Assembly: GCA_035456525.1 (NCBI GenBank)
Contig: DATICZ010000103.1
Span: 5,403-69,402, forward strand
Reading direction: 5' to 3'
Source: Gemmatimonadales bacterium
Lineage (GTDB): Bacteria; Gemmatimonadota; Gemmatimonadetes; Gemmatimonadales; GWC2-71-9
DNA length: 64,000 nt
Made by a program: the position numbers and the translations under genes. Of this stretch, positions 46,311 to 64,000 are shown one piece after another. The number at the start of each line of letters is the position of its first letter. The stretch's first letter is position 1. Under the pieces are notes generated by a model. The model made no database searches. It had not been told where the DNA came from and worked only from the letters and a program-made list of their open reading frames with translations.

Positions 46311-48919
46311 CGGAGCTGGGCCAGAGCCTCGCGCACCTGGTCGGTGACGTCTCGCTCCTCGCGCAGCGTATCGATCAGCGCTTCGGCCCGCTTGGCGTGC
46401 AGCTCCAGCGACGCCACGGTCCCGCTGACCTGGTCCACCACGGCCTTCTGGCCGTGCAGCAGCTCGAGATTCGACTGGACGTCGGCGAGCAGCGTCTCCA
46501 CCCGCCCGAGCCGTTCCTCCGCCTGCTCGATCTGCCGCTTGCGGTGGTCGAGCGTGCCGGCTGCTTCCTGCACGTCCCCGGCGAGCGACACGATGCGCTC
46601 GAGGGTTTGCCGCGTGACGGTGATCTCTTCCTTGGCGTCGGCGATGGCGCGGACGTCGTTCGTCGTCCGCTCGGCCAGGTCGAACAGTCGCTGCATGTCC
46701 GCGGCCAGCGCGTCGAGCGTCGAGCGCCGATCCACCACCTGCTCCAGACCGCGGGTGAGGGACGCCTCCAGCACCTCCCACCTGGTCAGCCGCTCCTCGA
46801 ACTGCGACATCCGCTTCTGCACCAACCGGAGTCCGCCGGCGCGCCCATCGAGCTCGTCCAGCGCCGCCGTGATCTCGCCCATCCGGCTGCCCGCCGTCCC
46901 GAGCGCACCGCTGAGCCGATCGCTCCGCTCTTCCAGCTGCTGCGCCGCGTTGACGGCCTGCTCCCGCAGGCGTGACGCCTCCGCGAGGTGCTCGGCGGCC
47001 TTGTCGAGTGCGGCCTGACGGCGATCGAGCTCCTGACCCAGCGCGTTGGTGCGATCCGCCAGATGTTCCACGCTCTGCGTGCGCGCCTCGACCGACGCGA
47101 GCGTCGCATCCACGTCCGCCACGCGCCGCTCGACCCGCTCCACCGTCGCGACCGCGGCCGGTACCAGCTGCTCGATGCGTCCCGCTTCCTCGGCGTGCGC
47201 CGCCAGGGCGAGGAACCGCTCGTCGGCCCCGTTCAACCGGCCCAGCAGCGTGTGGGTCCGCTCCTCGATCTGCGCCCCGCGGCCGGCGAGGTCGGCGAGC
47301 TTCGCGTTGAGCTCCTCCACCAGCTGCCGGCGCGCCTCCAACTCGCCCACCGACTGGGCCAGCCGGCTCGCCTCGTTCTTGACCACCTCGACCGTGGGAC
47401 GCAGGTCCTCGACCTCCTCGAGCTCCTCCCGCAAGGCGTCCACCGATGCGGTCACGCCGGCAAGCCACGCCTTCGTACCGGCCTGGCCCTCGCGGGCCCG
47501 CGCGAGGTCGGCCTCGGCCGCCTGAAGCTGCTCGAGCGCGTCCTTGACGGTTTCATGCGTGCCCCGCAAGCTCGCGACGTCGTGCAGCACCGCCTCGACC
47601 ACTGGCTTCGACTGCTCCAGGCGCGCCGTGCGTTGGGCCACGCCCTCCACCGTTTCCTGGAGCCGGACGGCGGTGGCCTCGATGGCCCGAACTCGCTCGG
47701 CCTGCTGCTCCAGCTCCCCGACGTCCTCGGCCACATCGTCCAGCTGTACCCGCAGCCCCTCGGTCCGCGCCTGCACCTCGGAGATCCGCTGGCTCGCCTC
47801 GTCGAGCGACCGCACGCGACCTTCCAGCTCCGTCAGGCCGCCGCGCAGATCCTGGATGCGCTGCCCCACGGAGTCGAGGCCCTGGTTCTCCAGCTCGAAG
47901 CGCTTGACGGTGCGCTCCACGTCATCCCGCAGCGTGGCGAGACGGCCGCGCAGTTCCTCGTCTCCACGCCTGAGCTCCTCGTGCTGCGTCTGCACCTGCA
48001 TCGAGCCCGAGAGGACCGACTCATGGGCGGCCTGCAGCTCGGCGAGCTTCGCTTCCATCGCGCCGAGACGCTTGGCGCCCTCTTCCTGGGCGCGCGTCCG
48101 CTCTTCGAGCTCCCGGTCGAGCTCGAGCAGACGCGTCATCTGGGCGGAGGTGCGCTCCACGACTTCACGCTGCTGCTCGATGGCCGTGACCTTCTGGGAG
48201 ACCGCGTCGGTGAGGGATTTCAGAGATCCGAGCTGACGCGCACTCTGCGCGGCGTCGGCGGCCACCTGCGTCAGGTGGGTAAGGGTACGTTCCAGGCCGG
48301 CGACGCGTGCCTCGGCGGCGACCACGCCGCCCTGAGCGTCCTGTTGCCGTTCCTCGAACGCGTTGAGCCGCTGCGCGGCCGACTCGCTCGCGCGGCGCAG
48401 CTCCTCCTGGCGCTCGCGCACCCGGTCGTAGCTCTGCGTCACTTCGCGGAGCTGCGTCAGGGCGGAGTCCGCGTCACCGCGAAGCTTGCTCAGCTCCGCG
48501 GCGCGCTCCAGAAAGGCGCCCAGCTCGCTCTTGAGCGCGAGCGCCTGCTCGAGCTGACCGCGCAACTCCTGGATCTCGCCGCGCAGCCGCTTGGCATCGT
48601 CGGAGGAGTGCCCCAGCTGCGTCTCCATGCGCCGCTGCAGCTTCGCGACCCCTTCGGTTTGCTCGTCGAGCGTGGCGAGCACGGGGACAACCCGTTCGAG
48701 CGCCTTGACGCGCGATTGCACCTCGCTCACCGAGCGGCGCGTCTCCTCCAGCGGCTGGACGATCTGATTGAGCTGCTGGGCGGATTCCTGCGCGCGGGTA
48801 TGCAGCGCTTCGAAGGCGGCGCGCTCCTGGCGCATCTGCGCCAGAATGGCGCGCAGCTCGGCGGGGAGCTCGGCGGTGTCGGATTGGTGACCGAAGAACT
48901 TGTTGAGCGAGACGGCCAT
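46280..48919 (-). CDS. 879-aa coiled-coil-rich protein with no recognisable enzymatic or membrane domain
   Basis: The E/A/L/Q/R-rich sequence is heptad-like from end to end. I saw no Walker motifs, TM segment or signal peptide. ATG 48919 (MAVSLNKFFG) is preferred over TTG 48937. The 661-aa plus-strand ORF 46988..48973 is its L/R/G-rich antisense shadow. Confidence 0.8.
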   Translation of the reverse strand: MAVSLNKFFGHQSDTAELPAELRAILAQMRQERAAFEALHTRAQESAQQLNQIVQPLEETRRSVSEVQSRVKALERVVPVLATLDEQTEGVAKLQRRMETQLGHSSDDAKRLRGEIQELRGQLEQALALKSELGAFLERAAELSKLRGDADSALTQLREVTQSYDRVRERQEELRRASESAAQRLNAFEERQQDAQGGVVAAEARVAGLERTLTHLTQVAADAAQSARQLGSLKSLTDAVSQKVTAIEQQREVVERTSAQMTRLLELDRELEERTRAQEEGAKRLGAMEAKLAELQAAHESVLSGSMQVQTQHEELRRGDEELRGRLATLRDDVERTVKRFELENQGLDSVGQRIQDLRGGLTELEGRVRSLDEASQRISEVQARTEGLRVQLDDVAEDVGELEQQAERVRAIEATAVRLQETVEGVAQRTARLEQSKPVVEAVLHDVASLRGTHETVKDALEQLQAAEADLARAREGQAGTKAWLAGVTASVDALREELEEVEDLRPTVEVVKNEASRLAQSVGELEARRQLVEELNAKLADLAGRGAQIEERTHTLLGRLNGADERFLALAAHAEEAGRIEQLVPAAVATVERVERRVADVDATLASVEARTQSVEHLADRTNALGQELDRRQAALDKAAEHLAEASRLREQAVNAAQQLEERSDRLSGALGTAGSRMGEITAALDELDGRAGGLRLVQKRMSQFEERLTRWEVLEASLTRGLEQVVDRRSTLDALAADMQRLFDLAERTTNDVRAIADAKEEITVTRQTLERIVSLAGDVQEAAGTLDHRKRQIEQAEERLGRVETLLADVQSNLELLHGQKAVVDQVSGTVASLELHAKRAEALIDTLREERDVTDQVREALAQLRQEEVVAKTA

Positions 48920-49131
48920 GGCGCGATCCCCGGGCAATGGGTCGGTGCGGCAACGCTTCTGGAAGGGCGCTGATGCAGGCGCCGGGTGAGGTAGGAACGC
49001 AACAGATATGCCGTGTCCGTCGGGGTGTCGCTACTACTTTGGCTGATTGAGGTTAGACTGTCGGGTGGTCTACTCCATCGTAGGCCTGCTCTCGCCTCGC
49101 GCAGGCGAAACTGCAAAATACCGCAAAACCC

Positions 49132-52391: not shown

Positions 52392-55046
52392 TTATTCGGT
52401 CCTGAGCACTCCCGCCGGATCAGCCCGGCTGGCCCGCAGCGCCGGGAGCCAGGAGGCGATCAACGCGGTGAGCGCCAACAAGACGGAAACGGTGACGAAA
52501 GTCGTCGGGTCACGTGGTGGCACCTCATAGAGGAGAGTGCGGATCGCCCGCGCACCGGCCAGCGCCCCCGACAAACCCAGCGCGAGCCCCACGCCGACCA
52601 CCTGGAGGCCGTGCCGGACGACGAGCCACTGTACCTGTGGAGCGCGCGCGCCGAGCGCCAGCCGAATGCCCATCTCGCGGGTGCGCCGGCGGCCCAGCTG
52701 CGTCATCACGCCGTAGACACCCACCAGGGCGAGCAGCACGCCGGTCACGGCGAAGATCAACAGCAGGCACATGAGGAATCGCCGATCCGCGATGGAGCGT
52801 GCCTGCATGCCTTCCAGCGGCCGCACCAGATCGGGCGCCAGGTCCCGGTCGAGCCCGCTGACGACTCGGCGGACGGCGGGCGCGAGCGCCGCTGCTTCGT
52901 TTTCGGCCCGCACGAACAGCGTCATGTAGCTGTTGGCGTTCTGCGCCGCCGGCTCGTACGCCTCGATCAGCGGCTCGATCGACAGGCCACGTTGCCGCAC
53001 ATCCCCGACGACCCCGACGATGGTGCGCCACACCGACGTCGAATCGGGGATCTTGTCGAAGGTGATCCGCTGTCCGATCGGATCCTCGCCCCGGAAGTAC
53101 CGGCGTGCCAGCGCCTCGTTGATGATCGTCACCGGCACCGAGCCCGACCGGTCGGCGGGCGTGAAGTACCGTCCCGCGCGCAGCGGAATCCGCAGCGTCC
53201 GGAAATAGTCGGGCGTCACGAAATCGTGCCCCACCTCGGTGCCGTAGTCGTTCGCCGGCCGACCCGCGATGTGGAAGTCGCTGGTGTACGCCACGCCGCT
53301 GCCCGCAAAGGGCGCGACGACCGCCTCGGCCGCCCCCACGACGCCAGGGAGGGCGCGCACTCGCTCCTCCAGTGCCTCGTAGAATGCGTGCTGGCTGGCG
53401 GCGCTGTCGTATCCTCGCGAAAGCTCGATGCCGACCGCGAGCACGCCGTGGGCGTCGAGCCCGACCGGAACGCGCTGCAGTCGCCAGAAGCTGCGAACCA
53501 GCAGCCCCGCGCCCACCGTCAGGATCAGCGCCAGTGCGACCTCCCCCGCCACCAGCGTGTCGGCCCACGTCCGCAGACGCCGGCTCGTGCCGGTCCGCTC
53601 TCCCTCCTTCAGTACTTCGGCCGGGACGCGGCGCGCGCTCCACAGGACCGGCGCCGACCCGAAGAGCAATCCGGTGAGCGTCGTGAGGGCGACCATCGCC
53701 GCGAGTACCGACACGTCCATCGGCACATGCGCAACGGGCAGCATGCCGGGTGGCTGCAGTACGGCGAGCGCCCGCGTCCCGTACCACCCCAACGCCACTC
53801 CGGCCAGTCCGCCAAGCGCGGAGAGCACCAGGCTCTCGGTGAGCGCCTGCCGCGCGAGGCGGCCTCGCCCCGCGCCCAGCGCGAGCCGCAGGGCAGCCTC
53901 CCGCTCCCGGCCGAGCGCGTGGGCCAGGAGCAGATTGGCCACGTTCGCGCAGGCGATCAGCAGCAGCAGGCCGACGGCGGCCTGCAGGAAGAGCAGCGCC
54001 AATCGCACGTCGCCCACGAGGAATTCGTGCAGCGGCACGAGATCCGCGCCCATCACCCGGTTGGTGACCGGATACTCGTTCTGCAGCTGACGCACGACCG
54101 TCTGGAATTCCGCGTCGGCCGCCCGCGGGGTCACGCCGGGCTTCAACCGGGCCACCACGCGCAGCCAATGGGCGCGCCGGAAGAAGTCCTGCGACCGGAG
54201 CTGGGGATCCCAGCGCATGGGACGCCACAGGTCGAAGGAATCGGCCGCGAAGGTGAAATCCGCAGGCATGACGCCCACGATCTCGGTGAGCGTGCCGTCG
54301 AGCGAGATGGTGCGGCCGACGGCGCGTTCGTCGCCGCCGAACAGGTCCCGTGCCAGGCGATGGCTGACGACGGCGACGGGAGTTCCCCCGCTCCAAGTCT
54401 CGGCGTCCACAAACACCCGACCGGCCTCCGGACGGACCTGGAGCACGGCGAAGTAGTTGCCCGTCACCGCCCGCTCGCGCACGCGCCGCGGGATGTCCAG
54501 GCCACTCAGAGTGGTGCCTCCCCCGGGAGCGTACGCCGCGACGTCTTCGAAGGCCTGGACCCGCTCCTTCCAGTCGAGGTAGTTGGCCGGGGCGGCGACC
54601 TGCCGGCGCCACCCCTTCTCGGGGTTGTCCTCCGAGAGCATCACGAGGCGTTCCGCATGTGGGAACGGCAATGGGCGCAGGATGACCGCGTTGACGGCGG
54701 AGAAGATTGCGGTGTTGGCGCCGATGCCGAGGGCGAGGGTCAGGATGGCGGCGCCGCTCAAGGCCGGATTGTGTCGCAGCGTCCGCAGGGCGAAGCGCGC
54801 GTCGGCGACGGCATCCTCCAGCCAGCGCACACCGCGTCCGTCGCGATGCGCCTCCTTCACCACTTCCACTCCGCCGAAGCGCACCAGCGCCGCCCGGCGT
54901 GCTTCGTCGGGGGCGAGTCCCCGCGCCCGATTCTTTTCGGCCTCGAGCTCCAGGTGGTGGCGGATCTCATCGTCCAGCTCCTGCTCGGTCGCGGCACGCC
55001 GGAACAGCGCGCGCCACCGCAGCAGCACCCCGCGCACGAATCCCAT
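52392..55046 (-). CDS. ADOP-type duplicated FtsX-domain ABC permease (MacB-like)
   Basis: Starts MGFVRGVLLRWRALFRRAATEQELDDEIRHHLE, the characteristic permease prefix. Two FtsX-like four-TM modules are separated by large periplasmic domains. The first 83 codons of the track ORF are junk. Confidence 0.9.
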   Translation of the reverse strand: MGFVRGVLLRWRALFRRAATEQELDDEIRHHLELEAEKNRARGLAPDEARRAALVRFGGVEVVKEAHRDGRGVRWLEDAVADARFALRTLRHNPALSGAAILTLALGIGANTAIFSAVNAVILRPLPFPHAERLVMLSEDNPEKGWRRQVAAPANYLDWKERVQAFEDVAAYAPGGGTTLSGLDIPRRVRERAVTGNYFAVLQVRPEAGRVFVDAETWSGGTPVAVVSHRLARDLFGGDERAVGRTISLDGTLTEIVGVMPADFTFAADSFDLWRPMRWDPQLRSQDFFRRAHWLRVVARLKPGVTPRAADAEFQTVVRQLQNEYPVTNRVMGADLVPLHEFLVGDVRLALLFLQAAVGLLLLIACANVANLLLAHALGREREAALRLALGAGRGRLARQALTESLVLSALGGLAGVALGWYGTRALAVLQPPGMLPVAHVPMDVSVLAAMVALTTLTGLLFGSAPVLWSARRVPAEVLKEGERTGTSRRLRTWADTLVAGEVALALILTVGAGLLVRSFWRLQRVPVGLDAHGVLAVGIELSRGYDSAASQHAFYEALEERVRALPGVVGAAEAVVAPFAGSGVAYTSDFHIAGRPANDYGTEVGHDFVTPDYFRTLRIPLRAGRYFTPADRSGSVPVTIINEALARRYFRGEDPIGQRITFDKIPDSTSVWRTIVGVVGDVRQRGLSIEPLIEAYEPAAQNANSYMTLFVRAENEAAALAPAVRRVVSGLDRDLAPDLVRPLEGMQARSIADRRFLMCLLLIFAVTGVLLALVGVYGVMTQLGRRRTREMGIRLALGARAPQVQWLVVRHGLQVVGVGLALGLSGALAGARAIRTLLYEVPPRDPTTFVTVSVLLALTALIASWLPALRASRADPAGVLRTE

Positions 55047-55378
55047 CAGGCGCTCTCCAAGATGCAGTCGACCGCGGACACGTAGCGCCGCCAGCCCTCG
55101 GTCTCGGTCCCCAGCGCCCGCCGGCCCTGCGGCGTCAGCCGGTAGTACCGGGCCCGGCGGTTGTGATCGCTGGTGCGCCACTCGCTGTCGATCCAGCCCT
55201 TGAGCTCGAGCCGCTGCAGCGCCGGGTAGAGCGAGCCCTGGTTCACGTCCAGCACGCCACGCGAGATCTGTTCGATGCGCTGGCTGATGCCCCACCCGTG
55301 CATCGGCTCGAGCGTCAGGGTCTTCAGGATCAGGAGATCGAGGGTGCCGCGCAAAACGTCGGTGGACGAGGTGGCCAT
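55046..55378 (-). CDS. PadR family transcriptional regulator
   Basis: 110 aa. LRGTLDLLILKTLTLEPMHGWGISQRIEQISRGVLDVNQGSLYPALQRLELKGWI. The stop overlaps the ADOP start by 1 nt (TGATG). Confidence 0.9.
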   Translation of the reverse strand: MATSSTDVLRGTLDLLILKTLTLEPMHGWGISQRIEQISRGVLDVNQGSLYPALQRLELKGWIDSEWRTSDHNRRARYYRLTPQGRRALGTETEGWRRYVSAVDCILESA

Positions 55379-55492
55379 GGATCGCTTGTGTCGAGTTCCG
55401 ACAAATAGGGCGCCGCTCCTGTCGAAAGTCAAGAGGAGCGACCGCCGGTTGCCGCCCGTGATGCCGGGTGTAGTTTCGCTGCGCACTGGACG

Positions 55493-56257
55493 GTGACGAT
55501 GACCGGATCAGCCGGGCAGCAGATACGGTTCCTGATCGGCGTGGACGACACCGACGACCCCGAGAGCCGCGGCACCGGATTCCACGCCCGGGAGCTCGGG
55601 CGCCGGCTCGAGGCGGCGGGCATCGCCTTGCCTGGGGGCATCACCCGTCACCAGCTGCTCGTCGACCCCCGCATCCGTTACACGTCCCACAACAGCGCCG
55701 CCTGTCTCACCGTACGCGCGCGGCCCGACGCCGAGGCGGCGCTCGCGGTCGCATGCCGCGAGTTCCTGGTCGCCGAGAGCGCCCCCGGCGCGGACGCCGG
55801 GTTGTGCATCATCCCGTTCGATGCGGCGGGTGCCGAGATCCAGGCGTTCGGACAGCGCGCCAAGCGCGCCGTGCTGGAGCGCCGCGACGCCGAGCGGCTC
55901 GCCGGCCGCGTGGTGCTCGAGGGCCTCACAGGAGACGGGGGCGGTGTGATCGGCGCACTCGCCGCCGTCGGCTTGCGCGCGAGCGGCAGCGATGGGCGGT
56001 TTCTCTGGCTCCCGGGCCTGCGGGAAGCCGCGGACCGGCGCTACCGCGTCGCCGACCTCGCGGCGGCAACCGGCATCGAACGGGTGCAGACGGTGAACGG
56101 CACGCCGATCGAGCGCGACGAGGCGCTGGTCGATCTCGGGCCCTGGCCGCGCGCCGTGCTGATCGACGGTCGAGCGGTCCTCCTCGTGGAAAGGGCGGAT
56201 CATGACGAACCGGATTCCTGGCGAGCCGCTCCCAAGGAGCTCGTCAAACGCTATTGA
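55493..56257 (+). CDS. TiaS N-terminal (kinase-like) domain homologue, function unknown
   Basis: 254 aa. Motifs IGVDDTDDPESRGTG, HQLLVDPRIRYTSHNSAACL and GGGVIGALAAVG resemble, from memory, the IGIDDTDS, RLNPN..KTRGNGA and GLIGALAAVG motifs of archaeal tRNA(Ile2) agmatidine synthetase. I saw no OB-fold or zinc-ribbon part. The start could instead be the ATG two codons in. Confidence 0.55.
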   Translation: MTMTGSAGQQIRFLIGVDDTDDPESRGTGFHARELGRRLEAAGIALPGGITRHQLLVDPRIRYTSHNSAACLTVRARPDAEAALAVACREFLVAESAPGADAGLCIIPFDAAGAEIQAFGQRAKRAVLERRDAERLAGRVVLEGLTGDGGGVIGALAAVGLRASGSDGRFLWLPGLREAADRRYRVADLAAATGIERVQTVNGTPIERDEALVDLGPWPRAVLIDGRAVLLVERADHDEPDSWRAAPKELVKRY

Positions 56258-56783
56258 GGCCGGCGCGCGCCTCGACTGGGCGCGCGTGACCCTGCTATTG
56301 CTGACCGGGGGCGCGGCCGCCGCGCTTCACGCGGCGACCCGGGGCCACCTGCACCTGCCCGGACACCAGGGACTGTTCTGGATGGCGCTGCTCGGCGCCG
56401 TGCGCGGCGCCACCGGGTCCGGCTGGAGCGCCTCCATCACGGGGGTGGGCGCCGGCGCCGCTGCGACCCTGCCGCTCCTGAGGTTTCACGAGCCGCTCTC
56501 CGTGACCGCGTACCTCGTGTCCGGCCTGGCGTTCGACGCACTCATGAACATCACCCCGGCCATCCGCTACCAGAGCCTCCGCGCCGGTGCGCTCGCCGCG
56601 ATTGCCTTTGCTACGAAGCCGTTGCTCCAGGGGCTCGCGACGATCGCCCTGGGATGGCGTACGCCCGTCGCCACGCGAGGGCTCTTTTATCCTCTGGCGA
56701 CGCACCTCGTCTTCGGATTCGCGGGCGGTCTCATCGGCACCTGGCTGTGGCTGCGATTCGCAAAAGCGCGGCGCCCTTCGTAA
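56202..56783 (+). CDS. polytopic membrane protein (5-6 TM), unknown function
   Basis: 193-aa ORF overlapping the upstream gene by 56 nt. An alternative GTG start at 56286 gives MTLLLLTGGAAAALHAA. The stop overlaps the receptor start (TAATG). Confidence 0.6.
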   Translation: MTNRIPGEPLPRSSSNAIEAGARLDWARVTLLLLTGGAAAALHAATRGHLHLPGHQGLFWMALLGAVRGATGSGWSASITGVGAGAAATLPLLRFHEPLSVTAYLVSGLAFDALMNITPAIRYQSLRAGALAAIAFATKPLLQGLATIALGWRTPVATRGLFYPLATHLVFGFAGGLIGTWLWLRFAKARRPS

Positions 56784-58825
56784 TGCGCGCCGCGACGTGC
56801 CCGTGGCTGACAGCCGCCGGACTGCTTGGGCTGATGGCTCCCGTGTCTCCCGCTGCCGGGCAACAGGGAGACGTGTACGAGCTGGGCCCCATCGTGGTCA
56901 CGGCTCCCGCCGCGGGCGTCGTGTCAGCCGCCGTCGTGAGCGAGCAAGACATCGCTCGCCGCGGGGCGCGGACGCTGGACGAAGCCCTGGCGCTCCTGCC
57001 GGGAGTCTCGATCCATACCGGCGCCGACGGCACGCCGCGCATCGACGTGCGCGGCTTGCGCCCGCGACAGGTGCGCGTGCTCGTCAATGGCGTTCCGCTG
57101 AACTCCACTTACGACGGCCAATTCGACCCCACGATGATCCCGACCGAGGACATCGCGGCGATCACGCTCACGACCGCGGCGAGCTCCGTGCTGTACGGCG
57201 GCGGGGGCGAGGTGGGTGGCGTCATCAACATCCGCACCCGCCGCGGCGCCGGAGCCCTCCGCATCACGCAGGGGGGCGTGGAGGCGGGCGCCGGGGATGC
57301 CCTCCGGGGGTGGACGGCCGCGGGGGGCGGGAGTCGCACGGTCGACGTGTTCGTCAGCACGAGCAGCAGCCGGCGCGACGGGTTCCCCCTCTCCGGCGGT
57401 TTCTCCGCGACCGGCGCCCAGGCCCCGGGGCTGCGCGAGAACTCGTTTCGCCGGCGTGAGGCGGTGTACGCGAACGCCGGGTACCGGCCATCAGCCGCCT
57501 GGCAGCTGGGCGCCGCGCTGAACCACGTCGTGGGGAGCCAGGGGATCCCGCCCAGCGCGATCAGCGATCCCGCCGATCCCTTTGCCGCCACGCCGCGCTT
57601 CGAGCGGTACCCCTGGCAACGCAGCGACGCGGTGCAGCTCGCCGCCGCCTTCGCTCCCCCCGGCGCCTGGCAGGCGCGCGGCTGGGCGTACGGCACCGAC
57701 GCGGCCGAGGACGACGATCGCTACGATGACGCGACCTACACCTCGATGGACGACTCCACCGTGCGTGGCACGTTCCGGCTCCACTCCACGCTGGACATCG
57801 CCGGGGTGCACCTCGAGCCGCGCCGCTCGCTCGGCGGCGCGGGCACCATCGCGCTGGCCATCGACTGGGAGCGCAACCGGTGGAACCAGACCGGCGTGAT
57901 TCGGGACGTGGCGGTGGGCGGAGGAGGCGGAGGTGGTGGAGGTGGTGGAGGTGGAGGAGGCGCCGCGACGTTCTATCGGGTGCGCAGCGTCGACCAGCAG
58001 CGGCTGATCCGCCTGGGCGGCGCAGGGATCGAGTACACCGGAACCCCCTTCGCGAAGCTGGGGATCACCGCGGGGTACCGGACGCAGTGGCAGTCGCCCT
58101 TCGGGCTCACCACGCAGCGCGCCGACCTCGCCATGCTGGGCGCGCGTTACGACATCGGCGCGCGCACGCGGGTGCGCGCCGCGGCCGCGAGACGCGCCCG
58201 CTTCCCCTCCATCCGCCAGCTGTACGACGCCAGCACAGGCGATTCGACCCTGGCGCCCGAGCGCGCAAACACATTCGAGCTCGGCATCGAGCGGTCGCTG
58301 GGCTCACGAACCTCGGTCGGCGTCACCCTGTTCCAGAACGACGTCCACGACTACATCGAGGTCGACGAGATCACCCGCCGGTCGACGAATTTCCCCCACT
58401 ACCGGTTCCGGGGCGTGGAGGTCGCGGCCGAGACCGCTCCCTGGACGCTACTGCAGCTGCGCCTCGGCTACGGTTACCTCCACGCCAGGGACCTGTCCCC
58501 GGGCGCGGCGACGACGGCGCTCCAATATCGCCCGCGTCACCGCGCCACCCTCGACGCAACGCTGCGGCCCGGCGCGGGGTTCACGGGCAGCGTGTCGATC
58601 CTGTACGCGGGGGGCCAACAGTACTTTTCGAGGACCCTGCCGCTGCTCGGCGCCGCGCTCCCCGATTACGCGGTGGTCGACTCGCGCTGGTCGCGCGATT
58701 TCACGCGCCCCCGCGTGTCCCTCTACCTGGGCGTGCGGAATCTCCTCGACCGCCGCTACGAGACGAGCTACGGGTTCCCGGAGCCGGGGCGGATCTGGTA
58801 CGGCGGCGCGGCGCTCGCCCCTTGA
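56783..58825 (+). CDS. TonB-dependent receptor
   Basis: Starts MRAATCPWLTAAGLLGLMAPVSPAAGQQ. Plug motifs TLDEALALLPGVSI, DVRGLRPRQVRVLVNGVPLN and LYGGGGEVGGVINIRT. C-terminal barrel. Confidence 0.85.
   Translation: MRAATCPWLTAAGLLGLMAPVSPAAGQQGDVYELGPIVVTAPAAGVVSAAVVSEQDIARRGARTLDEALALLPGVSIHTGADGTPRIDVRGLRPRQVRVLVNGVPLNSTYDGQFDPTMIPTEDIAAITLTTAASSVLYGGGGEVGGVINIRTRRGAGALRITQGGVEAGAGDALRGWTAAGGGSRTVDVFVSTSSSRRDGFPLSGGFSATGAQAPGLRENSFRRREAVYANAGYRPSAAWQLGAALNHVVGSQGIPPSAISDPADPFAATPRFERYPWQRSDAVQLAAAFAPPGAWQARGWAYGTDAAEDDDRYDDATYTSMDDSTVRGTFRLHSTLDIAGVHLEPRRSLGGAGTIALAIDWERNRWNQTGVIRDVAVGGGGGGGGGGGGGGGAATFYRVRSVDQQRLIRLGGAGIEYTGTPFAKLGITAGYRTQWQSPFGLTTQRADLAMLGARYDIGARTRVRAAAARRARFPSIRQLYDASTGDSTLAPERANTFELGIERSLGSRTSVGVTLFQNDVHDYIEVDEITRRSTNFPHYRFRGVEVAAETAPWTLLQLRLGYGYLHARDLSPGAATTALQYRPRHRATLDATLRPGAGFTGSVSILYAGGQQYFSRTLPLLGAALPDYAVVDSRWSRDFTRPRVSLYLGVRNLLDRRYETSYGFPEPGRIWYGGAALAP
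57917..57961 (+). repeat. (GGN)15 tract encoding 15 consecutive glycines inside the receptor
   Basis: Read directly: ggc gga gga ggc gga ggt ggt gga ggt ggt gga ggt gga gga ggc. Protein context VAV-G15-AATFYRV. Confidence 0.9.
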
Positions 58826-58838
58826 GCCCGCGCCGGTT

Positions 58839-59039
58839 CTAGCTGGCGGGTCGCTTCGCGAGATCGACGGCCGGGTGATAGATGATCCGGTAGGAGCTGG
58901 TGTCTCCCCGAAGCGGGTTGACCGCCTCCGAGGCGGCCAGCGCGGCCCGCTCCTCGGGAGTCGGCGCGGCGGGCTGTGCGCACGCGACCGCCAGCGCCGT
59001 CCCGGCAAGCAGCAGCACTACCCCAGCACCAGTGCGCAT
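58839..59039 (-). CDS. small lipoprotein (66 aa), hypothetical
   Basis: Internal start MRTGAGVVLLLAGTALAVAC-AQ (lipobox) within track ORF 58839..59102. Confidence 0.5.
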   Translation of the reverse strand: MRTGAGVVLLLAGTALAVACAQPAAPTPEERAALAASEAVNPLRGDTSSYRIIYHPAVDLAKRPAS

Positions 59040-59053
59040 GGACCCTCCTTGAT

Positions 59054-59407
59054 TCATTCCTCGCGGCGCGCGTCGTCGGACGGCGCGCCCTGAGCCAGCC
59101 AATTGCGAAACGATTCCGCGTCATGGGCGAGGCGCCATTCATCGAAGATCGAAAGCGCCATTGCCCGGACGCCGCCTTCCGCCTCGCCGGCCGCCCGGCA
59201 TTCCTCGAGCAGCCATGCCTCGAACGCGTCCGGTTCGGGATCGGCGACGACGGCGCGCTCCAGCAGATCGCGCTTGATGGCCAGCCCGATCGCGTCGGGG
59301 GTCGTGTTGCGCTTGCGGCGCTTGCGGCGTCCCTCGGAGGCTTCGAGGGCCGCGAGCAGCTCCCGGCACACCTCGCTGGGGCGGGACAACCGGATCTCGT
59401 CGGTCAC
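59054..59407 (-). CDS. hypothetical 117-aa protein coupled to fdhE
   Basis: The GTG start overlaps the fdhE stop (GTGA). Sequence MTDEIRLSRPSEVCRELLAALEASEGRRKRRKRNTTPDAIGLAIKRDLLERAVV...FDEWRLAHDAESFRNWLAQG. The rest of track ORF 59054..60133 is a shadow of fdhE. Confidence 0.55.
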   Translation of the reverse strand: MTDEIRLSRPSEVCRELLAALEASEGRRKRRKRNTTPDAIGLAIKRDLLERAVVADPEPDAFEAWLLEECRAAGEAEGGVRAMALSIFDEWRLAHDAESFRNWLAQGAPSDDARREE

Positions 59408-60279
59408 CGCTCCACCACCCGGGCCTCGAGGGAGTACGCGGTCCGCTCGGGACGGTGGTAGCCCCGGTCCAGCGCGGCGACGTCCAACGCCACGGTGGTC
59501 AGATCGTCCAGCAGGACCTCCCACGACCGCAGGGGGCGCACGGTCGATTCCGCCTTGACGTAGCCCTTGCAGCTGTCGCAGACCTCGGCCTTCCGCGTCG
59601 GCTCGCCCTCCCCGGGTGCCAAGTAGCCGAGGTTCTCGTGATTCGTCTCGTCGCAGAACGGACACCGCAACCAGGAGACTTCCCAACCCGTGCCGCACCG
59701 CCCGCAGCGGAGCCACCGCTTGTGCTCGAGCCCGCGGAATTCCGCGAGCGTCGGCCAGGCGCCGCACATGGGGCAGTAGCCTTCCCACCACGTGGACGGC
59801 ACCTCGGACCCGAGTTTCCGGCCGCAGGCCTGCAACAGGGGCAGCGCCGCCATCTGGGCGACGACGCGCAGCGCCGGAGTCGCGGAGGCCGGGGCGCCGG
59901 CGGTCGTGGCGAGCGCGTCCACCCGCGCGTCGTCCTGGCACACGGCCGCCTCCAGCAGTGCCACCGCATCCAGACGGCCCGGGTCGAGACTTTCCAGAGC
60001 CGGAGCATCGAGCTCGAGCAGCCGGCGCACCCAGCGCCGTGCCGCGCGGCCGGCCACGGTCATGCGCGATCGATGCAGCAGCGGCGCCCGCGCGGGCCGG
60101 TCGGCCGGCGTCGCGGGAACCGCCGCCTCCCACACGCCGTCGTTCTCACTCTCCGCGAGGGCCGCCGCGACCAGTCCGAGCCACGTTTCGGATTCCGGGT
60201 GCTTCCGCCGACCTTCGGCGAGTCGCTGGGCGAGCTCCGGATCGGCTACGACCCGGGAGCGGGCATGGGGCCAGAGCAT
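59404..60279 (-). CDS. fdhE: formate dehydrogenase accessory protein FdhE
   Basis: 291 aa with four Cys pairs: CPMCG, CGRCG, CPFCD and CDSCKGY. The spacing and genomic context are typical of FdhE. Confidence 0.9.
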   Translation of the reverse strand: MLWPHARSRVVADPELAQRLAEGRRKHPESETWLGLVAAALAESENDGVWEAAVPATPADRPARAPLLHRSRMTVAGRAARRWVRRLLELDAPALESLDPGRLDAVALLEAAVCQDDARVDALATTAGAPASATPALRVVAQMAALPLLQACGRKLGSEVPSTWWEGYCPMCGAWPTLAEFRGLEHKRWLRCGRCGTGWEVSWLRCPFCDETNHENLGYLAPGEGEPTRKAEVCDSCKGYVKAESTVRPLRSWEVLLDDLTTVALDVAALDRGYHRPERTAYSLEARVVER

Positions 60280-60473
60280 TTCACCTTGGGCGTTCGGCAG
60301 GGCGTCCGGTTGTAGATCTTGGCCCCCGCGTGAATTCGCACCACCGCACCGTGGTTACCCGGATCGCCGCCCGGACCCCCGCCCCGTTGCCGCGCCGCCT
60401 CCGGGCTCGTGCATGCCGCAATCCCGGCCGCGAGGGCGAGCCACACGATCCGTCGGACAGGGTGCCTCGTCAT
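60246..60473 (-). CDS. possible 75-aa lipoprotein coupled to the NrfD-type subunit
   Basis: This is the C-terminal part of junk track ORF 60246..61475: MTRHPVRRIVWLALAAGIAAC-TSPEAARQRGGGPGG... The ATG overlaps the nrfD-like stop (ATGA). GC3 is high. The tail overlaps the fdhE start by 34 nt. Confidence 0.4.
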   Translation of the reverse strand: MTRHPVRRIVWLALAAGIAACTSPEAARQRGGGPGGDPGNHGAVVRIHAGAKIYNRTPCRTPKVKCSGPMPAPGS

Positions 60474-61384
60474 CGCATCGCCCCCTCCGCTACGCGGTGG
60501 AACTCGATCCCGCTCGAGGCGAGGATCGTGACCGCGCGCAGCAGGAATCCCCCGACCAGAACGAGCAGCGCCGCGTTGACGGCGCCCGCTGGTTTCGCGT
60601 GCAGCCGCAGCGGCCAAAGAATCCCCACGCCGACCACACCGAGCAGGAGCAACACCCCCCAGACGCTCAGCCAGACTCTCGCCACCGAGCCCAACGACAC
60701 CATGAACGCGATCAGGATCACGAGCTCGAAGACCAGCGCCCGGCTGTCGAAGGACGCGAGCCACTTGAGGGATCGCTCGCTCGCCCCACGCCCGGGCCCG
60801 AGCAGGGTCAGCAGCGCCGCGCCGGTGGACGCGCCGGACACGAGGAACAGCGCTCCCAGCCAGGGACTGTCGGCCCAGATCGGGCGGTTCGTGACGGCCA
60901 GCAGCACGCCCGTGTACCCGGCCACGAAGAACCCGAACAGGCCCCCGACGCCCGCCACCAGCTTGCCCAGGACCGTCCCGCCGCTCAGGGCCTTCGCGAG
61001 CGCTCCCTGCGACCGCCCCTCCTCGGCACGGGCGCCGAGCATCGACAATGCCGCGCACGCTCCGAAGAGGAGAATCGCCCAGGCCCCGAACGAGATCGGT
61101 GACCAGGATTTGAACATGAGGTGCGGGAAGCGCTCCGACTGGAACAACATGTGCCAGAAGCGCAGCGGCCGTCCGAGATCGAGGGTGAGCAGGAGACCGC
61201 TCACGATGGCGCCCCAGAAGGCCACGGAGTAGCCCGTCCGCACCACGGGCCGGTCTTCCGGCCGGCCGAACCACTCGACCAGCGCGGCGAGGAAGTACGC
61301 GCCGCCGGCCAGGCCCCCGATGAAGAAGTAGGGAATGATGAACCAGGTCCAATGCGGGGAGGCCGTGAAGAAGGTGTCGGACAT
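60470..61384 (-). CDS. NrfD/PsrC-family polytopic membrane anchor subunit
   Basis: 304 aa from MSDTFFTASPHWTWFIIPYFFIGGLAGGAYFLAAL, with about 8 TM segments. The start overlaps the Fe-S subunit stop by 1 nt (TAATG). Confidence 0.85.
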   Translation of the reverse strand: MSDTFFTASPHWTWFIIPYFFIGGLAGGAYFLAALVEWFGRPEDRPVVRTGYSVAFWGAIVSGLLLTLDLGRPLRFWHMLFQSERFPHLMFKSWSPISFGAWAILLFGACAALSMLGARAEEGRSQGALAKALSGGTVLGKLVAGVGGLFGFFVAGYTGVLLAVTNRPIWADSPWLGALFLVSGASTGAALLTLLGPGRGASERSLKWLASFDSRALVFELVILIAFMVSLGSVARVWLSVWGVLLLLGVVGVGILWPLRLHAKPAGAVNAALLVLVGGFLLRAVTILASSGIEFHRVAEGAMR

Positions 61385-62190
61385 TAGGCGGTCCCTCCCG
61401 AAGTCGTGCCGGCCATATCGTCCATGCGTTGCTTGCGCAGCCCCACGAGCGCCAGCAGGCCGAGCACCGCGGCACTGGCGGCAGAGAGGGCTCCGGCGGG
61501 CTTCAGGTTCCGAGTCGGGAGTCGTGGGCTCTCCGGCAGACCGTAGACACCCGGCTTGTCCACCAGGAGATAGAAGGAGTTCAGCCCGCCCAACGGCCCG
61601 CCGGGATCGGCGCCGTACAGGTAGGCGTCGACACCCTGGGACTTGAGCTGCTCGACGCGTTTCTGGCCGCGCGCGCGCAACTCCGCGATGGTGCCGAACT
61701 GGATCGAATCGGTCGGGCAGGCCTTGGAGCAGGCCGGCTCGAGCCCGACCTGCAGCCGGTCGTAGCACAGCGTGCATTTCTGCGCCGTGCCCGACACGTG
61801 ATTGATGTCGATGACCCCGAAGGGACAGGCGGCGATGCAGTCGCGGCACCCGTTGCACACGTCCGACTGGATGACGACGGTGTCGAACTCGGTGCGGATG
61901 ATGGCGCCGGTGGGGCAGACTTCGAGGCACGGCGCCTGCACGCAGTGCTTGCACACGTCGCTCATCATCAGCCAGCGGCCTTCGTAGGCCCCGTGGAACT
62001 GCTCGATGAACCGGACGTGCCGCCAGTGAATGCCGTCGAGCCGTCGCGTGTTGTCGTAGCTGTCGCCGCTCAGCTCCCGCAACCCGCCGTCCTCCGAGGG
62101 GAGCTCATTCCAGTTCTTGCACGCGACTTCGCACGCCTTGCACCCGATGCACACCGTGGTGTCGGTGAAGAATCCCATGGCCTCGGGCAT
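61384..62190 (-). CDS. fdnH: formate dehydrogenase iron-sulfur (beta) subunit, FdnH-like
   Basis: Four ferredoxin-type Cys clusters: CIGCKACEVAC, CKHCVQAPCLEVCP, CNGCRDCIAACP and CTLCYDR...EPACSKACP. It has a C-terminal TM helix as in E. coli FdnH. The start MPEAMGFF lies at 62190. Confidence 0.9.
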   Translation of the reverse strand: MPEAMGFFTDTTVCIGCKACEVACKNWNELPSEDGGLRELSGDSYDNTRRLDGIHWRHVRFIEQFHGAYEGRWLMMSDVCKHCVQAPCLEVCPTGAIIRTEFDTVVIQSDVCNGCRDCIAACPFGVIDINHVSGTAQKCTLCYDRLQVGLEPACSKACPTDSIQFGTIAELRARGQKRVEQLKSQGVDAYLYGADPGGPLGGLNSFYLLVDKPGVYGLPESPRLPTRNLKPAGALSAASAAVLGLLALVGLRKQRMDDMAGTTSGGTA

Positions 62191-62192
62191 GG

Positions 62193-64000
62193 TCAGGCCC
62201 TTTCCACGTTGCACACGAAGGCCTTGCCTTCGTGGATCGACACATTGGGATCACCGACCCAGGCGGTGAGATCGTTGACCACCGCGCCGGTCGAGAGCCC
62301 CGCCCAGCCCCAGTGCCACGGCATCCCCACGTGGTGGATGCGTTTCCCGGCGACGTTCATCACGCCGATCCGGTCGGTGACGAGCGCCTTGGCCCGGATC
62401 TGCCCGCGCGGGCTCGAGACGACCACCCAGTCGAGGTTCTTGATGCCCTTCTCCTGGGCCAGCCCGGTGCCGATCTCGATGAACAGCTCGGGTTGCAGCT
62501 CGGCGAGCCACGGCAGCCAGCGGCTCATCGCGCCTGCCAGGTAGTGCTCCACCAGACGGTACGTGGTGATGATGTAGGGGAACTTCGGGTCGCCGAAGGC
62601 CGCGAGCGGATTCCACTCCTTTCCGGCCGCCCACACCTTGTGCACCGGGCTCATCTGCTGCTTGTAGAGCAGATTCTCGATCGGCGACTCGTGCGGCTCG
62701 TAATGCGTCGGGAATGGACCATCCACGAGGCCGGCCGGCACGAATATCCAGCCGCGCCCATCCCCCTTCATGATGAACGCGTCGGTGCCGGACAGCGCGT
62801 CCAGGCCGATGCCGTCGGGCTTGGGTTTCGCGTCGGGGGCCTTGTTCGCCCCGAAGTCGGGCACGTCGTACCCGACCCACTTGCCGCGCGGCGTCGCCGC
62901 CCCGGTTTTGGGGTCGGGCGGATTGACGAAGTTCGGATCCCACCAGATCCAGCGTTTCCGCTCGCTCCACGGGTTGCCCTGCAGGTCCGCGGACGCGCGG
63001 TTGTACATGACGCGACGGTTGGCCGGCCACGCCCAGCCCCACTTGAGGTGGGCACCGGGCACGCCGGGCGGATCGGGCTCGCGCCGCGCCGTGAGGTTCT
63101 GATCCCAGGCGGGGTAACACCCACAGTAGATCCACGACGCGCACGTCGTCGAGCCGTCGTCCTTCAAGGCCGCGAATCCCGGCAGGTGCTGCGCCGGGTT
63201 GCCCGTCACGTAGCCGTTGATCTCCCGCAGCACTTTGCGCGCGCTGATCTCGCCCGGATACAGCGGCTCCTCGCCTGCGTCGGGATCGAAGTCCCACGTC
63301 ACATTCTTCCAGCCCTGGTCGCGGGGCTGCGTGCTGTCCGCGTACGCCTTCTTGAGGCGCTTCGCCAGGTTGTGGTAGAACCACGAATCGGTGCGGCAGT
63401 CGCCCGGCGCCTTGGCAGCGTAGGAATGCCACTGCAGCATGCGCTGGGTGTTGGTGTAGCTGCCGTCGTATTCGGCGATCTGCGTGGAGGGGAAGAAGAA
63501 CACCTCGGTCTTGATGTCCGCGACCTTGACCTCGCCGCTCTTCACCTCCGGCGCCTGATACCAGTACGTGGCGGATTCGGTGAGCCAGTTGTCCTTGACG
63601 ACCAGCCAGTCGAGCTGGCGCAACGCCCGGCGTGTCGCCGTGCCGTTGAGCGACGTCGCCGGATTCTGCCCGACGACCACCGTCCCCTTGATCTTTCCGT
63701 CGTTCATGGCGGAGAACATCGCCATGTGCGAGTGATCACCCAGGATCTTGGGGTGCCAGTCGTAGCCGAAATCGTTCTCCGCGGTGGCGGCGTCGCCGTA
63801 CACCGACTTGAGGTAGGAGACCATGAACTTGGGGAAGTTGCCCCAATAGCCGGTCGGCGTCGTCTCGGCCGCCAGGTAGTCCCGCAGCGAATCGTGCGGC
63901 CGCAGCGCCGACGGCGCGTTCATGTAGCCGTGGATCGAGTGGTACAGGGTCGGCACGTCGGTCGACCCCTGGATGGCCGCGTGGCCGCGCAGCGCCATGA
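62193..64000 (-). CDS. fdnG: formate dehydrogenase catalytic (alpha, molybdopterin) subunit, FdnG/FdoG-like, partial (N-terminus beyond the right edge)
   Basis: Collinear with my recollection of the E. coli FdnG C-terminal two thirds: ALRGHAAIQGSTD, WGNFPKF, YGDAATAENDFGYDW, GWAWPANRRVMYNRASAD, GPFPTHYEP, TTYRLVEH and KAFVCNVERA. The region that would hold the Sec/Cys active-site residue is outside the window. Confidence 0.9.
   Translation of the reverse strand, partial: MALRGHAAIQGSTDVPTLYHSIHGYMNAPSALRPHDSLRDYLAAETTPTGYWGNFPKFMVSYLKSVYGDAATAENDFGYDWHPKILGDHSHMAMFSAMNDGKIKGTVVVGQNPATSLNGTATRRALRQLDWLVVKDNWLTESATYWYQAPEVKSGEVKVADIKTEVFFFPSTQIAEYDGSYTNTQRMLQWHSYAAKAPGDCRTDSWFYHNLAKRLKKAYADSTQPRDQGWKNVTWDFDPDAGEEPLYPGEISARKVLREINGYVTGNPAQHLPGFAALKDDGSTTCASWIYCGCYPAWDQNLTARREPDPPGVPGAHLKWGWAWPANRRVMYNRASADLQGNPWSERKRWIWWDPNFVNPPDPKTGAATPRGKWVGYDVPDFGANKAPDAKPKPDGIGLDALSGTDAFIMKGDGRGWIFVPAGLVDGPFPTHYEPHESPIENLLYKQQMSPVHKVWAAGKEWNPLAAFGDPKFPYIITTYRLVEHYLAGAMSRWLPWLAELQPELFIEIGTGLAQEKGIKNLDWVVVSSPRGQIRAKALVTDRIGVMNVAGKRIHHVGMPWHWGWAGLSTGAVVNDLTAWVGDPNVSIHEGKAFVCNVERA

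Follow-up and report, generated by a model that had tools for sequence, protein, structure and literature searches.

The DNA analysed here, called the window below, is the whole stretch of 64,000 nucleotides from contig DATICZ010000103.1 of a Gemmatimonadales bacterium; its G+C content is 69%, and the nearest protein relatives of the window proteins come from Gemmatimonadales genomes. Our subject is an operon of three genes on the forward strand, which encode a homologue of the kinase domain of the archaeal tRNA-modifying enzyme TiaS (gene 1), a six-helix inner-membrane protein (gene 2) and a TonB-dependent outer-membrane receptor (gene 3). We argue that the operon may serve the acquisition of molybdate and/or tungstate. 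The genes and the region ahead of them are as follows.

55379-55492, no strand: intergenic region of 114 nt between the probable start of a padR gene and gene 1, with an imperfect inverted repeat
55493-56257, forward strand: gene 1, TiaS-type TCKD kinase-like cytoplasmic protein of 254 amino acids (aa) from a GTG start
56202-56783, forward strand: gene 2, inner-membrane protein of 193 aa with six predicted helices
56783-58825, forward strand: gene 3, TonB-dependent outer-membrane receptor of 680 aa

These three open reading frames (ORFs), all in the same direction, fill 55493-58825 and have a coding-type G+C content at third codon positions (0.85-0.87). An alternative ATG of gene 1 at 55499, preferred by gene callers, would give a form of 252 aa. 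Gene 2 lies in the +1 frame relative to gene 1 and overlaps it by 56 nt, while its TAA stop and the ATG of gene 3 have one base in common (TAATG, 56781-56785). An earlier note on this stretch, made from the sequence alone, had read the second junction in the same way; for the first, it had proposed that gene 1 abuts or overlaps the gene of a membrane protein with five to six transmembrane segments, which can now be narrowed to an overlap and to six helices in the structural model.

To place the operon in a wider frame, we assembled 87 loci (80 species-level genomes, six loci from an exact protein look-up and the window), whose flanking ORFs were all clustered and then submitted to family searches. 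The 87 loci represent at least eight phyla. Gene 2 follows gene 1 in 75 of them, and in 71 of these 75, a set that again spans at least eight phyla, the two genes overlap by 44-62 nt, with gene 2 invariably in the +1 frame; independent gene callers likewise put the gene 2 start at this point. Such an overlap is far longer than the 1-4 nt usual in translational coupling. The dual-coded stretch (56202-56257 in the window) specifies both a conserved C-terminus of gene 1 (W..APK..IKRY) and a conserved N-terminal tail of gene 2 (M....G...K..S), in which Ser15 is nearly invariant; a role of this serine as phospho-acceptor would be speculation. Judging from this arrangement, co-translation of genes 1 and 2 looks obligate.

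The product of gene 1 carries IGVDDTDDPESRGTG at residues 15-29, PRIRYTSHNS at 59-68 and GGGVIGALAAVG at 149-160. The earlier note had quoted these motifs exactly as they stand in the sequence and its translation, and had recognised in them the N-terminal kinase domain of TiaS, a similarity that both profile and fold uphold. With the single sequence, phmmer reaches TiaS in PDB at E=0.002; with a profile of 82 family sequences, four TiaS chains are matched at E=3e-8 to 5e-7, and TiaS chains only. The AlphaFold model (pLDDT 94, pTM 0.91) retrieves the TiaS structures 3amt, 3amu, 5xob and 4rvz by Foldseek (E~1e-9, root-mean-square deviation 2.2-2.5 Å over ~155 columns, 23-26% identity). Residues ~10-160 correspond to the TCKD, whereas residues ~165-254 form a beta-rich domain of ~90 residues, for which Foldseek recognised no relative with this model. 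On the strength of profile and fold, gene 1 is genuinely homologous to the kinase domain of TiaS. The Pfam model of the domain (PF22641, TiaS_TCKD) scores the window protein at 12.8 bits (E=0.12), under its gathering threshold of 27 bits, and matches 72 of the 82 family members at E<=1 (best 5.6e-7), no other Pfam domain being found across the 82; the family is a divergent branch that this model scarcely reaches.

Invariant across the 82 sequences are D18-D19-T20-D21, G27-T28-G29, R52-H53-Q54, T64, H66-N67-S68, D101 and G151xIG154, so that the putative catalytic aspartates (D18, D19 and D21), whose conservation the earlier note had proposed to check, are kept throughout. D18, D19, T20, D21 and T28 align to D8, D9, T10, D11 and T18 of TiaS. 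In that enzyme, the acidic residues hold Mg-ATP and Thr18 is autophosphorylated; ATP is split to AMP and pyrophosphate, and the gamma-phosphate is moved to the C2 oxygen of C34. Since the DDTD motif, the threonine aligned with Thr18 and the GxxGxIGALAA segment are conserved, ATP-dependent phosphoryl chemistry is likely for gene 1, as far as its sequence can tell. Other invariant residues are specific to the family (R52-H53-Q54, T64, H66-N67-S68, D101, R169, R177, R220), and three cysteines (C71, C88, C105) are nearly invariant.

The best NCBIfam match of gene 1 is methanogenesis marker protein 11 (TIGR03280; E=5e-10, 38.9 bits vs a cutoff of 255.8), confined to model positions 134-284, i.e., the C-terminal half. 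This archaeal protein has an extra N-terminal region of ~130 residues and no function assigned in NCBIfam; by this match, it is another TCKD protein that is not TiaS. Entry 3u02, considered as a further stand-alone TCKD protein, was discarded, its title being that of a Pyrococcus furiosus TiaS structure. Among the relatives of gene 1, a variant type of 300-316 aa (P0245 and P0259, of 316 and 301 aa) has a differing C-terminal region with a cysteine-rich CFNC...RRW...C tail, and P0285 (428 aa) has an unrelated N-terminal extension of ~209 residues; no Pfam domain was found in these extra parts.

With a homologous kinase domain, and with some of its homologues annotated as TiaS by the Joint Genome Institute (JGI), gene 1 could be thought a TiaS-related bacterial enzyme modifying tRNA or another RNA, next to its present neighbours by coincidence. 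TiaS, the tRNA(Ile2) agmatidine (2-agmatinylcytidine) synthetase (PDB 3amt, 3au7, 4rvz, 5xob), is an archaeal protein of ~400-440 aa whose partner is tRNA, held by ferredoxin-like, OB-fold and zinc-ribbon domains; the bacterial gene 1 protein has 254 aa and none of these domains (the earlier note had already remarked on the lack of OB and zinc-ribbon parts), and its partners are a membrane protein and metal-uptake genes. The ~150-residue kinase domain with DDTD, the Thr18 equivalent and GxxGxIGALAA is common to both, but gene 1 has its own C-terminal beta domain, its RHQ and YTSHNS motifs and three cysteines replace TiaS segments, and its residues differ at the TiaS KTRGNG segment. Its NCBIfam TiaS score (25.4 bits, E=4.9e-6) is a small fraction of the equivalog cutoff of 600 bits, and translation genes are never part of the neighbourhood conserved across at least eight phyla. 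Because all RNA-binding domains are absent, gene 1 is not TiaS, as the missed cutoff also indicates; a tRNA-modification role, which fits neither domains nor context, was rejected and retains hardly any credence with us, and the JGI labels on the bacterial homologues are wrong.

The family is large, with >2,400 clusters at 90% identity (word-indexed search, E<=1e-3) and 403 clusters at 50% identity (exhaustive search, E<=1e-30). It was found in Gemmatimonadota, Alpha-, Beta- and Gammaproteobacteria, Acidobacteriota, Chloroflexota, Bacteroidota, Planctomycetota, Latescibacterota and Cyanobacteria, and its cultured carriers include Bradyrhizobium, Methylobacterium, Herminiimonas, Oxalicibacterium, Lentisalinibacter and Anabaena. 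RefSeq names the proteins of the family "hypothetical", and the single match of a plasmid search has the same label. One Gemmatimonadales metagenome-assembled genome (DATGDT01) has two copies of gene 1 (L007 and L090), 84% and 89% identical to the window protein: one copy comes with the full set of gene 2 and receptor, the other is followed near a contig end by a 90-aa call, which Pfam oddly labels DHHA1 and which may be gene 2 in truncated form.

Gene 2 is modelled with six long transmembrane helices (pLDDT 91), and the positive-inside rule puts both termini in the cytoplasm, since lysine and arginine place the N-tail, loops 2 and 4 and the C-tail inside. Motifs are conserved in the first external loop (RxPLxLPGHHG), in transmembrane helix 4 (TM4; YLLPGxxxD), in TM5 (KP) and in TM6 (YPxxxHxxFGxxGG). 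The first of these is the most conserved of all, and the external loop holds on average 1.7 Lys+Arg, 1.2 His and 0.07 acidic residues per sequence; within the membrane part, D112, K139-P140, Y163-P164 and H168 are conserved polar positions. Neither Pfam, NCBIfam nor PDB yielded a sequence relative, even with a profile of 45 sequences, and the database homologues (184-193 aa) are labelled "hypothetical proteins". By fold, the best match is 5edl, the S component of an energy-coupling factor (ECF) transporter (probability 1.0, TM-score 0.58), at a weak Foldseek E=0.048, followed by PanT and RibU.

Gene 3 is a TonB-dependent receptor: its translation begins with a signal peptide and a TonB-box-like YELGPIVVTA, a Plug domain (E=5e-22) precedes a beta-barrel (OMP_b-brl_3, E=4e-4), and NCBIfam families of TonB receptors match both of its ends, up to E=2e-35. 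A run of 15 consecutive glycine codons (mixed GGC/GGA/GGT; residues 379-393, 57917-57961) presumably lies in a barrel loop. The best family matches are receptors for B12 and siderophores, far under the cutoffs (for the BtuB equivalog, 122.5 bits vs 599.7). An assignment to BtuB was rejected on account of this score, of the lack of a riboswitch and of the molybdenum/tungsten context described below. A receptor related to gene 3 adjoins genes 1 and 2 in 47 of the 87 loci. Complete copies from Proteobacteria, Gemmatimonadota and Acidobacteriota typically match gene 3 at an E of about 1e-90 or lower, and a gene for a TonB C-terminal domain stands just after the receptor in one related locus. The Bacteroidales receptor is more distant and is preceded by the gene of a 305-aa lipoprotein. 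The receptor is absent from the loci of Anaerolineae/Chloroflexi, which are generally regarded as having no outer membrane.

The earlier note had asked for recurrent linkage of gene 1 homologues to TonB receptors or transporters, and it exists: beside the membrane protein and the receptor, importers of the ATP-binding cassette (ABC) type recur. What the earlier note did not contain, and what proved key to the interpretation, is a molybdenum/tungsten context, including a convergent formate dehydrogenase-type operon with FdhE in the window itself. In the Anaerolineae, the operon runs in the order regulator with helix-turn-helix and PBP_like domains, 154-aa lipoprotein, gene 1, gene 2, TupA, TupB and TupC. 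TupA homologues adjoin gene 2 in 17 loci, of which the 13 from Anaerolineae are phylogenetically close (PDB TupA 5my5 and 3lr1 at E=1e-60 to 1e-67, NCBIfam TupA at 1e-70). Five Anaerolineae TupA loci also have WtpA-like genes, and the one tested (L067) passes the NCBIfam cutoff (290.9 vs 242.75 bits). TupA-like proteins likewise flank the module in two proteobacterial loci (L080, L085), and a more distant one does so in L071, while the neighbour of the pair in Anabaena is a fusion of ModB, scoring above its cutoff, with ModC. Regulators point to the same metals: one with a ModE N-domain stands just upstream in nine loci of Bacteroidales and Betaproteobacteria (TIGR00637, E=5e-24), regulators combining helix-turn-helix and PBP_like domains occur in 17 loci, and L089 has one combining ModE-N and PBP_like. 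A DNA-binding domain joined to PF12727 is the architecture of the tungstate-responsive regulator TunR.

Enzymes that use these metals are found next to the module as well. In the window, a formate dehydrogenase-type operon (59404-63998, reverse strand) is convergent with the three genes and starts 0.6 kb after gene 3.

59404-60279, reverse strand: FdhE-like formate dehydrogenase accessory protein (Pfam FdhE_C, E=8.5e-9), the last gene of the convergent operon
60470-61387, reverse strand: NrfD-type membrane subunit of an oxidoreductase (Pfam NrfD, E=4e-25, residues 200-478 of a long ORF)
61384-62214, reverse strand: 4Fe-4S dicluster electron-transfer subunit, FdnH/HybA-like (Pfam Fer4_11, E=4e-26)
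62193-63998, reverse strand: catalytic subunit of a molybdopterin (bis-PGD) oxidoreductase of formate dehydrogenase type (Pfam Molydop_binding, E=3e-13), cut by the window end

The ORF of the NrfD-type subunit extends to 61954, but its domain and the boundary of the upstream gene put the start near 61387. Formate dehydrogenase genes flank the module in seven loci besides the window; in six gammaproteobacterial ones, the genes for the alpha, iron-sulfur and cytochrome b subunits directly precede the pair. The iron-sulfur and catalytic subunits of the window cluster with the iron-sulfur and 961-aa formate dehydrogenase alpha-like genes found there beside gene 1 (in L028, the alpha-like member matches NCBIfam Fdh-alpha at E=1.9e-139), whereas an NrfD-type membrane subunit takes the place of the gammaproteobacterial cytochrome b. 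The order gene 1, gene 2, receptor and, further on, FdhE is kept in L091, a related Gemmatimonadales contig. Elsewhere, the pair lies near genes for molybdenum hydroxylases or enzymes of sulfite-oxidase type (L089, L030, L092, L067) or follows a cluster of molybdenum-hydroxylase genes that ends in XdhC (L088). A neighbour of the inositol-monophosphatase (CysQ-like) family occurred in only 2 loci and was dropped.

Two lipoprotein families accompany the module. One, of 140-165 aa, is encoded just upstream of gene 1 in about 21 loci of Chloroflexi, Planctomycetes and a few others (L014, L017, L020, L026 and L052 among them); it has no Pfam match and conserves the motif EEGPxLxDVLxxAGV...TLTGxDG...ILDFNNxG, and an iterated search ties it to a 504-aa protein (L067:6799-8310) that in part matches the Oxidored_molyb domain. 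The members of this family may serve in capture outside the cytoplasm. The other is the 305-aa lipoprotein of Bacteroidales, devoid of known domains, whose gene stands between gene 2 and the receptor (L027, L040-L043, L046, L053, L059, L060, L064, L066, L069, L077, L078, L082, L083, L086) and which recalls the surface-lipoprotein partners of Bacteroidetes receptors.

Altogether, at least one of five molybdenum/tungsten probe families was found within 6 kb in 38 of the 80 species-level loci. Because genes for these metals occupy only a few sites per genome, this is a very large enrichment. That the module has some role in molybdenum or tungsten biology is therefore a claim we make with good confidence. 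The more specific reading, that 55493-58825 is a previously undescribed module for the acquisition of molybdate and/or tungstate, combining uptake with ATP-dependent trapping, we hold at a probability of about 0.5. This keeps, as the best reading, the general idea of the earlier note (import followed by ATP-dependent modification of a scavenged small molecule) and lets the context narrow the cargo to the two oxyanions. The module would then probably supply the neighbouring formate dehydrogenase-type enzyme, along with other molybdo- and tungsto-enzymes.

Under this reading, the gene 3 receptor would concentrate scarce molybdate or tungstate, or a chelate of the oxyanion, across the outer membrane into the periplasm. 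Gene 2 would bind the oxyanion at its conserved cationic His/Arg loop on the outer face and pass it inward, where the cytoplasmic gene 1 protein, made in a fixed ratio with gene 2 through the conserved 44-62 nt overlap, would spend ATP at its TiaS-like Asp/Thr active site and so render uptake irreversible. Two ways are conceivable: gene 1 might drive gene 2, or it might turn the oxyanion into a bound or activated (phospho- or adenylyl-) species destined for cofactor insertion or storage. The analysis shows the homologies, the folds, the pairing of the genes and their molybdenum/tungsten context; the cargo, the direction of transport, the contact between genes 1 and 2 and the chemistry we infer from these. 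A bolder version, which we advance as tentative only, sees in genes 1 and 2 a new class of inner-membrane uptake machine. Here the role of an ABC or ECF ATPase would fall to a TiaS-type kinase domain, which would either power an S-component-like carrier or trap the cargo of that carrier chemically; the tungstate or molybdate so activated (phosphorylated or adenylylated) would go on to cofactor insertion or storage. The receptor encoded beside them would then be the first outer-membrane gate of TonB-dependent type known to us that is dedicated to these oxyanions.

Several observations weigh against the acquisition reading. No member of the five probe families lies in the flanks of 42 of the 80 loci, many of which are short contigs or stand-alone receptor operons. 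In L095 (9375-13661), the genes after the pair encode a distant member of the PstS family of binding proteins, two permeases and an ATPase, a set of PstSCAB-like order in place of Tup, Wtp or Mod; another tetrahedral oxyanion may thus be used with the pair in some lineages. The likeness of gene 2 to S components is weak, at the Foldseek value given above, and comes with no sequence relative in PDB; no EcfT or EcfA genes were seen near it in the annotated flanks, where the ABC ATPases and permeases examined are parts of importers for oxyanions (Tup/Mod/Wtp or Pst-like). Upstream of the window operon, neither a ModE box nor a riboswitch for the molybdenum cofactor (Moco) was found. In Anaerolineae and some Proteobacteria, the module shares an operon with complete TupABC or WtpABC importers, and therefore gene 2 is not simply a replacement inner-membrane transporter. 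Lastly, gene 1 also occurs without gene 2.

In four such loci (L005, L006, L057, L084), a gene of the amino-acid-kinase family (~276 aa) follows gene 1 after a gap of 16-32 nt, and the one tested (L005) encodes a homologue of the molybdenum storage protein subunit beta (2ogx_B, E=3.7e-76); a single storage-protein-like gene stands there, vs the alpha and beta subunits of Azotobacter. Because a gene 1 lacking gene 2 sits directly before a storage-protein homologue, the core role of gene 1 need not be transport. Together with the coexistence with ABC importers, this pairing tempers the transport reading and fits another explanation, in which gene 1 is a cytoplasmic enzyme of molybdenum/tungsten trafficking (loading of the storage protein, metal selection or hand-off to MoeA-type insertion), gene 2 no more than its anchor in the membrane, next to where an ABC importer has its exit, and all transport the work of the receptor and the ABC systems. 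Such an enzyme would be at home in operons with complete TupABC, WtpABC or ModBC importers, and in L088, where gene 1 stands directly after the gene for XdhC, whose family is annotated as one of chaperones for cofactor insertion; C71, C88 and C105 could bind the metal. It accords poorly, though, with gene 2, whose conservation is strongest in the external cationic loop and in the intramembrane D112, K139 and H168, which is unexpected for a passive anchor, and with the many proteobacterial operons that consist of receptor, gene 1 and gene 2 only, with no ABC importer within 6-8 kb. We rate it as unlikely.

The cargo might also be organic, namely a metallophore of molybdenum or tungsten, or a salvaged pterin or precursor of the molybdenum cofactor, taken up in the manner of a vitamin by the receptor and an S-component-like permease and then phosphorylated or otherwise modified by gene 1 at the expense of ATP for trapping or metal release, a variant that corresponds to the general hypothesis of the earlier note. 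Chelates and vitamins are the usual cargo of TonB receptors and S components, the best family matches of gene 3 are receptors for B12 and siderophores, and dedicated lipoproteins accompany the module (the 305-aa one in Bacteroidales, the 154-aa one in Chloroflexi and Planctomycetes). Moreover, TiaS, the sole characterised TCKD enzyme known to us, phosphorylates an organic carbonyl oxygen. On the other hand, genes for metallophore biosynthesis (of the nonribosomal peptide synthetase, NRPS, or NRPS-independent siderophore type) were seen in no flank examined, the binding proteins that accompany the module are specific for oxyanions (TupA, WtpA, ModA/B), neither a Moco nor a cobalamin riboswitch was found, and the receptor scores far under the BtuB and siderophore cutoffs. 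An organic cargo seems to us rather improbable.

The region between the probable padR start and gene 1 holds an imperfect 12-nt inverted repeat, CGCTCCTGTCGA-aag-TCAAGAGGAGCG (3-nt spacer, 55414-55440), which could be an operator or a hairpin of the leader (5' untranslated region). A regulatory RNA or metal box, which the earlier note had proposed to look for here, did not turn up: Rfam gave no family at gathering score or at E<=1 in the whole window and in the 5' region searched with relaxed thresholds, save for a chance microRNA match, and no ModE box was found upstream of the operon. Nor did Rfam find a Moco or cobalamin riboswitch in the window or in 11 related loci, where the sole other match was an unrelated SAM riboswitch in L034; a consensus scan of 55300-55560 revealed neither a sigma-70-like promoter nor a terminator. 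The genes upstream of gene 1 and divergent from it, as the earlier note had observed, encode a PadR regulator (TIGR03433, E=1.5e-43) together with an ADOP-type permease of the MacB/FtsX kind (in all 52392-55486, reverse strand, with an apparent one-base overlap at about 55046). We regard this arrangement as incidental, because the two genes are absent upstream of gene 1 in the closely related contig L090 and are not among the recurrent neighbour clusters; the pair was accordingly rejected as regulator of the operon. In L090, the genes further upstream (M14 peptidase, DUF6498, long unannotated ORF) are syntenic with the window, so that the difference between the two contigs seems to stem from an insertion or deletion of the pair, with no relation to the operon.

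Compared with known systems, the module shares single traits with several. Gene 2 resembles the S components of ECF transporters and solitary ones (YkoE 5edl, RibU, PanT) in its small size (~190 aa) and its six helices and, weakly, in its fold, and its conserved first external loop occupies the position of the S-component lid, but it has no sequence similarity to them, no EcfT/EcfA partner genes, a partner of kinase fold and, putatively, an inorganic oxyanion instead of a vitamin as cargo; BioY and BtuM may be compared by analogy. The ModABC, TupABC and WtpABC importers handle the same metals, by context, and often share an operon with the module, but its core proteins have folds unrelated to theirs. 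Neither a periplasmic binding protein nor an ABC permease or ATPase is encoded in the window operon, and no such importer gene turned up among the window ORFs examined (25.8-64 kb). In diderms, the module adds a dedicated outer-membrane step, of which we found no description for molybdenum or tungsten. MosA/MosB of Azotobacter vinelandii (2ogx), to which gene 1 may be likened, are ATP-consuming cytoplasmic handlers of molybdate/tungstate, and a MosB homologue adjoins gene 1 where gene 2 is absent; however, their fold is that of amino-acid kinases, not the TCKD, and they are not encoded in the window. As in the TonB operons of BtuB type and of Bacteroidetes, a receptor with Plug and barrel is translationally coupled to inner-membrane and cytoplasmic parts, the differences being the score far under the BtuB and siderophore cutoffs, the lack of a cobalamin riboswitch and the molybdenum/tungsten context. 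The module is hence not TiaS, not a demonstrable ECF system, not a BtuB system and not an ABC oxyanion importer; in our judgement it lies outside every described kind of molybdenum/tungsten system, and what we say of its function is drawn from homology and context.

Other parts of the window deserve brief mention. Between the receptor gene and FdhE, an ORF of 87 aa (58839-59102, reverse strand) has a lipoprotein-like signal (LAVAC) and no family match. Further away, 25842-28616, 37147-41387 and 46280-48937 hold another TonB-dependent receptor, whose N-domain is of CarboxypepD_reg type, an RND pump of AcrB type together with the membrane-fusion protein belonging to it, and an ORF of 884 aa, whose Pfam matches, all below cutoff and to eukaryotic families, suggest a coiled-coil or low-complexity protein; none of the three has a link to the three-gene operon.

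The remark in the earlier note that such a combination is not a described system agrees with Pfam, NCBIfam, RefSeq naming and the literature, in none of which we found a characterised function. We found no publication on the module of genes 1 and 2, on bacterial TiaS-like proteins, on methanogenesis marker 11 or on a TonB-dependent receptor for molybdenum or tungsten; a Cupriavidus paper that names both tungstate and a TonB receptor is irrelevant to the module. Molybdenum and tungsten enzymes drive nitrate reduction, the interconversion of formate and CO2, nitrogen fixation and much of anaerobic metabolism. According to a 2024 publication (PMC11484787), an estimated 11% or so of molybdenum-using microbes have no Mod homologues, and further routes of uptake are to be expected and must exist. 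The module would bear on how bacteria scavenge these metals at nanomolar or picomolar levels, how the oxyanions cross the outer membrane, how molybdenum is told from tungsten and how cells live without ModABC. If our reading is true, this two-gene module, which counts roughly 400 protein clusters (at 50% identity) in at least eight phyla, lies within molybdenum/tungsten operons and uses a kinase fold otherwise known only from an archaeal tRNA enzyme, would be a new and directly testable player in all four questions, for which the cultured carriers make genetics feasible; the TCKD fold would gain a second biological role, with the bacterial "TiaS" annotations corrected.

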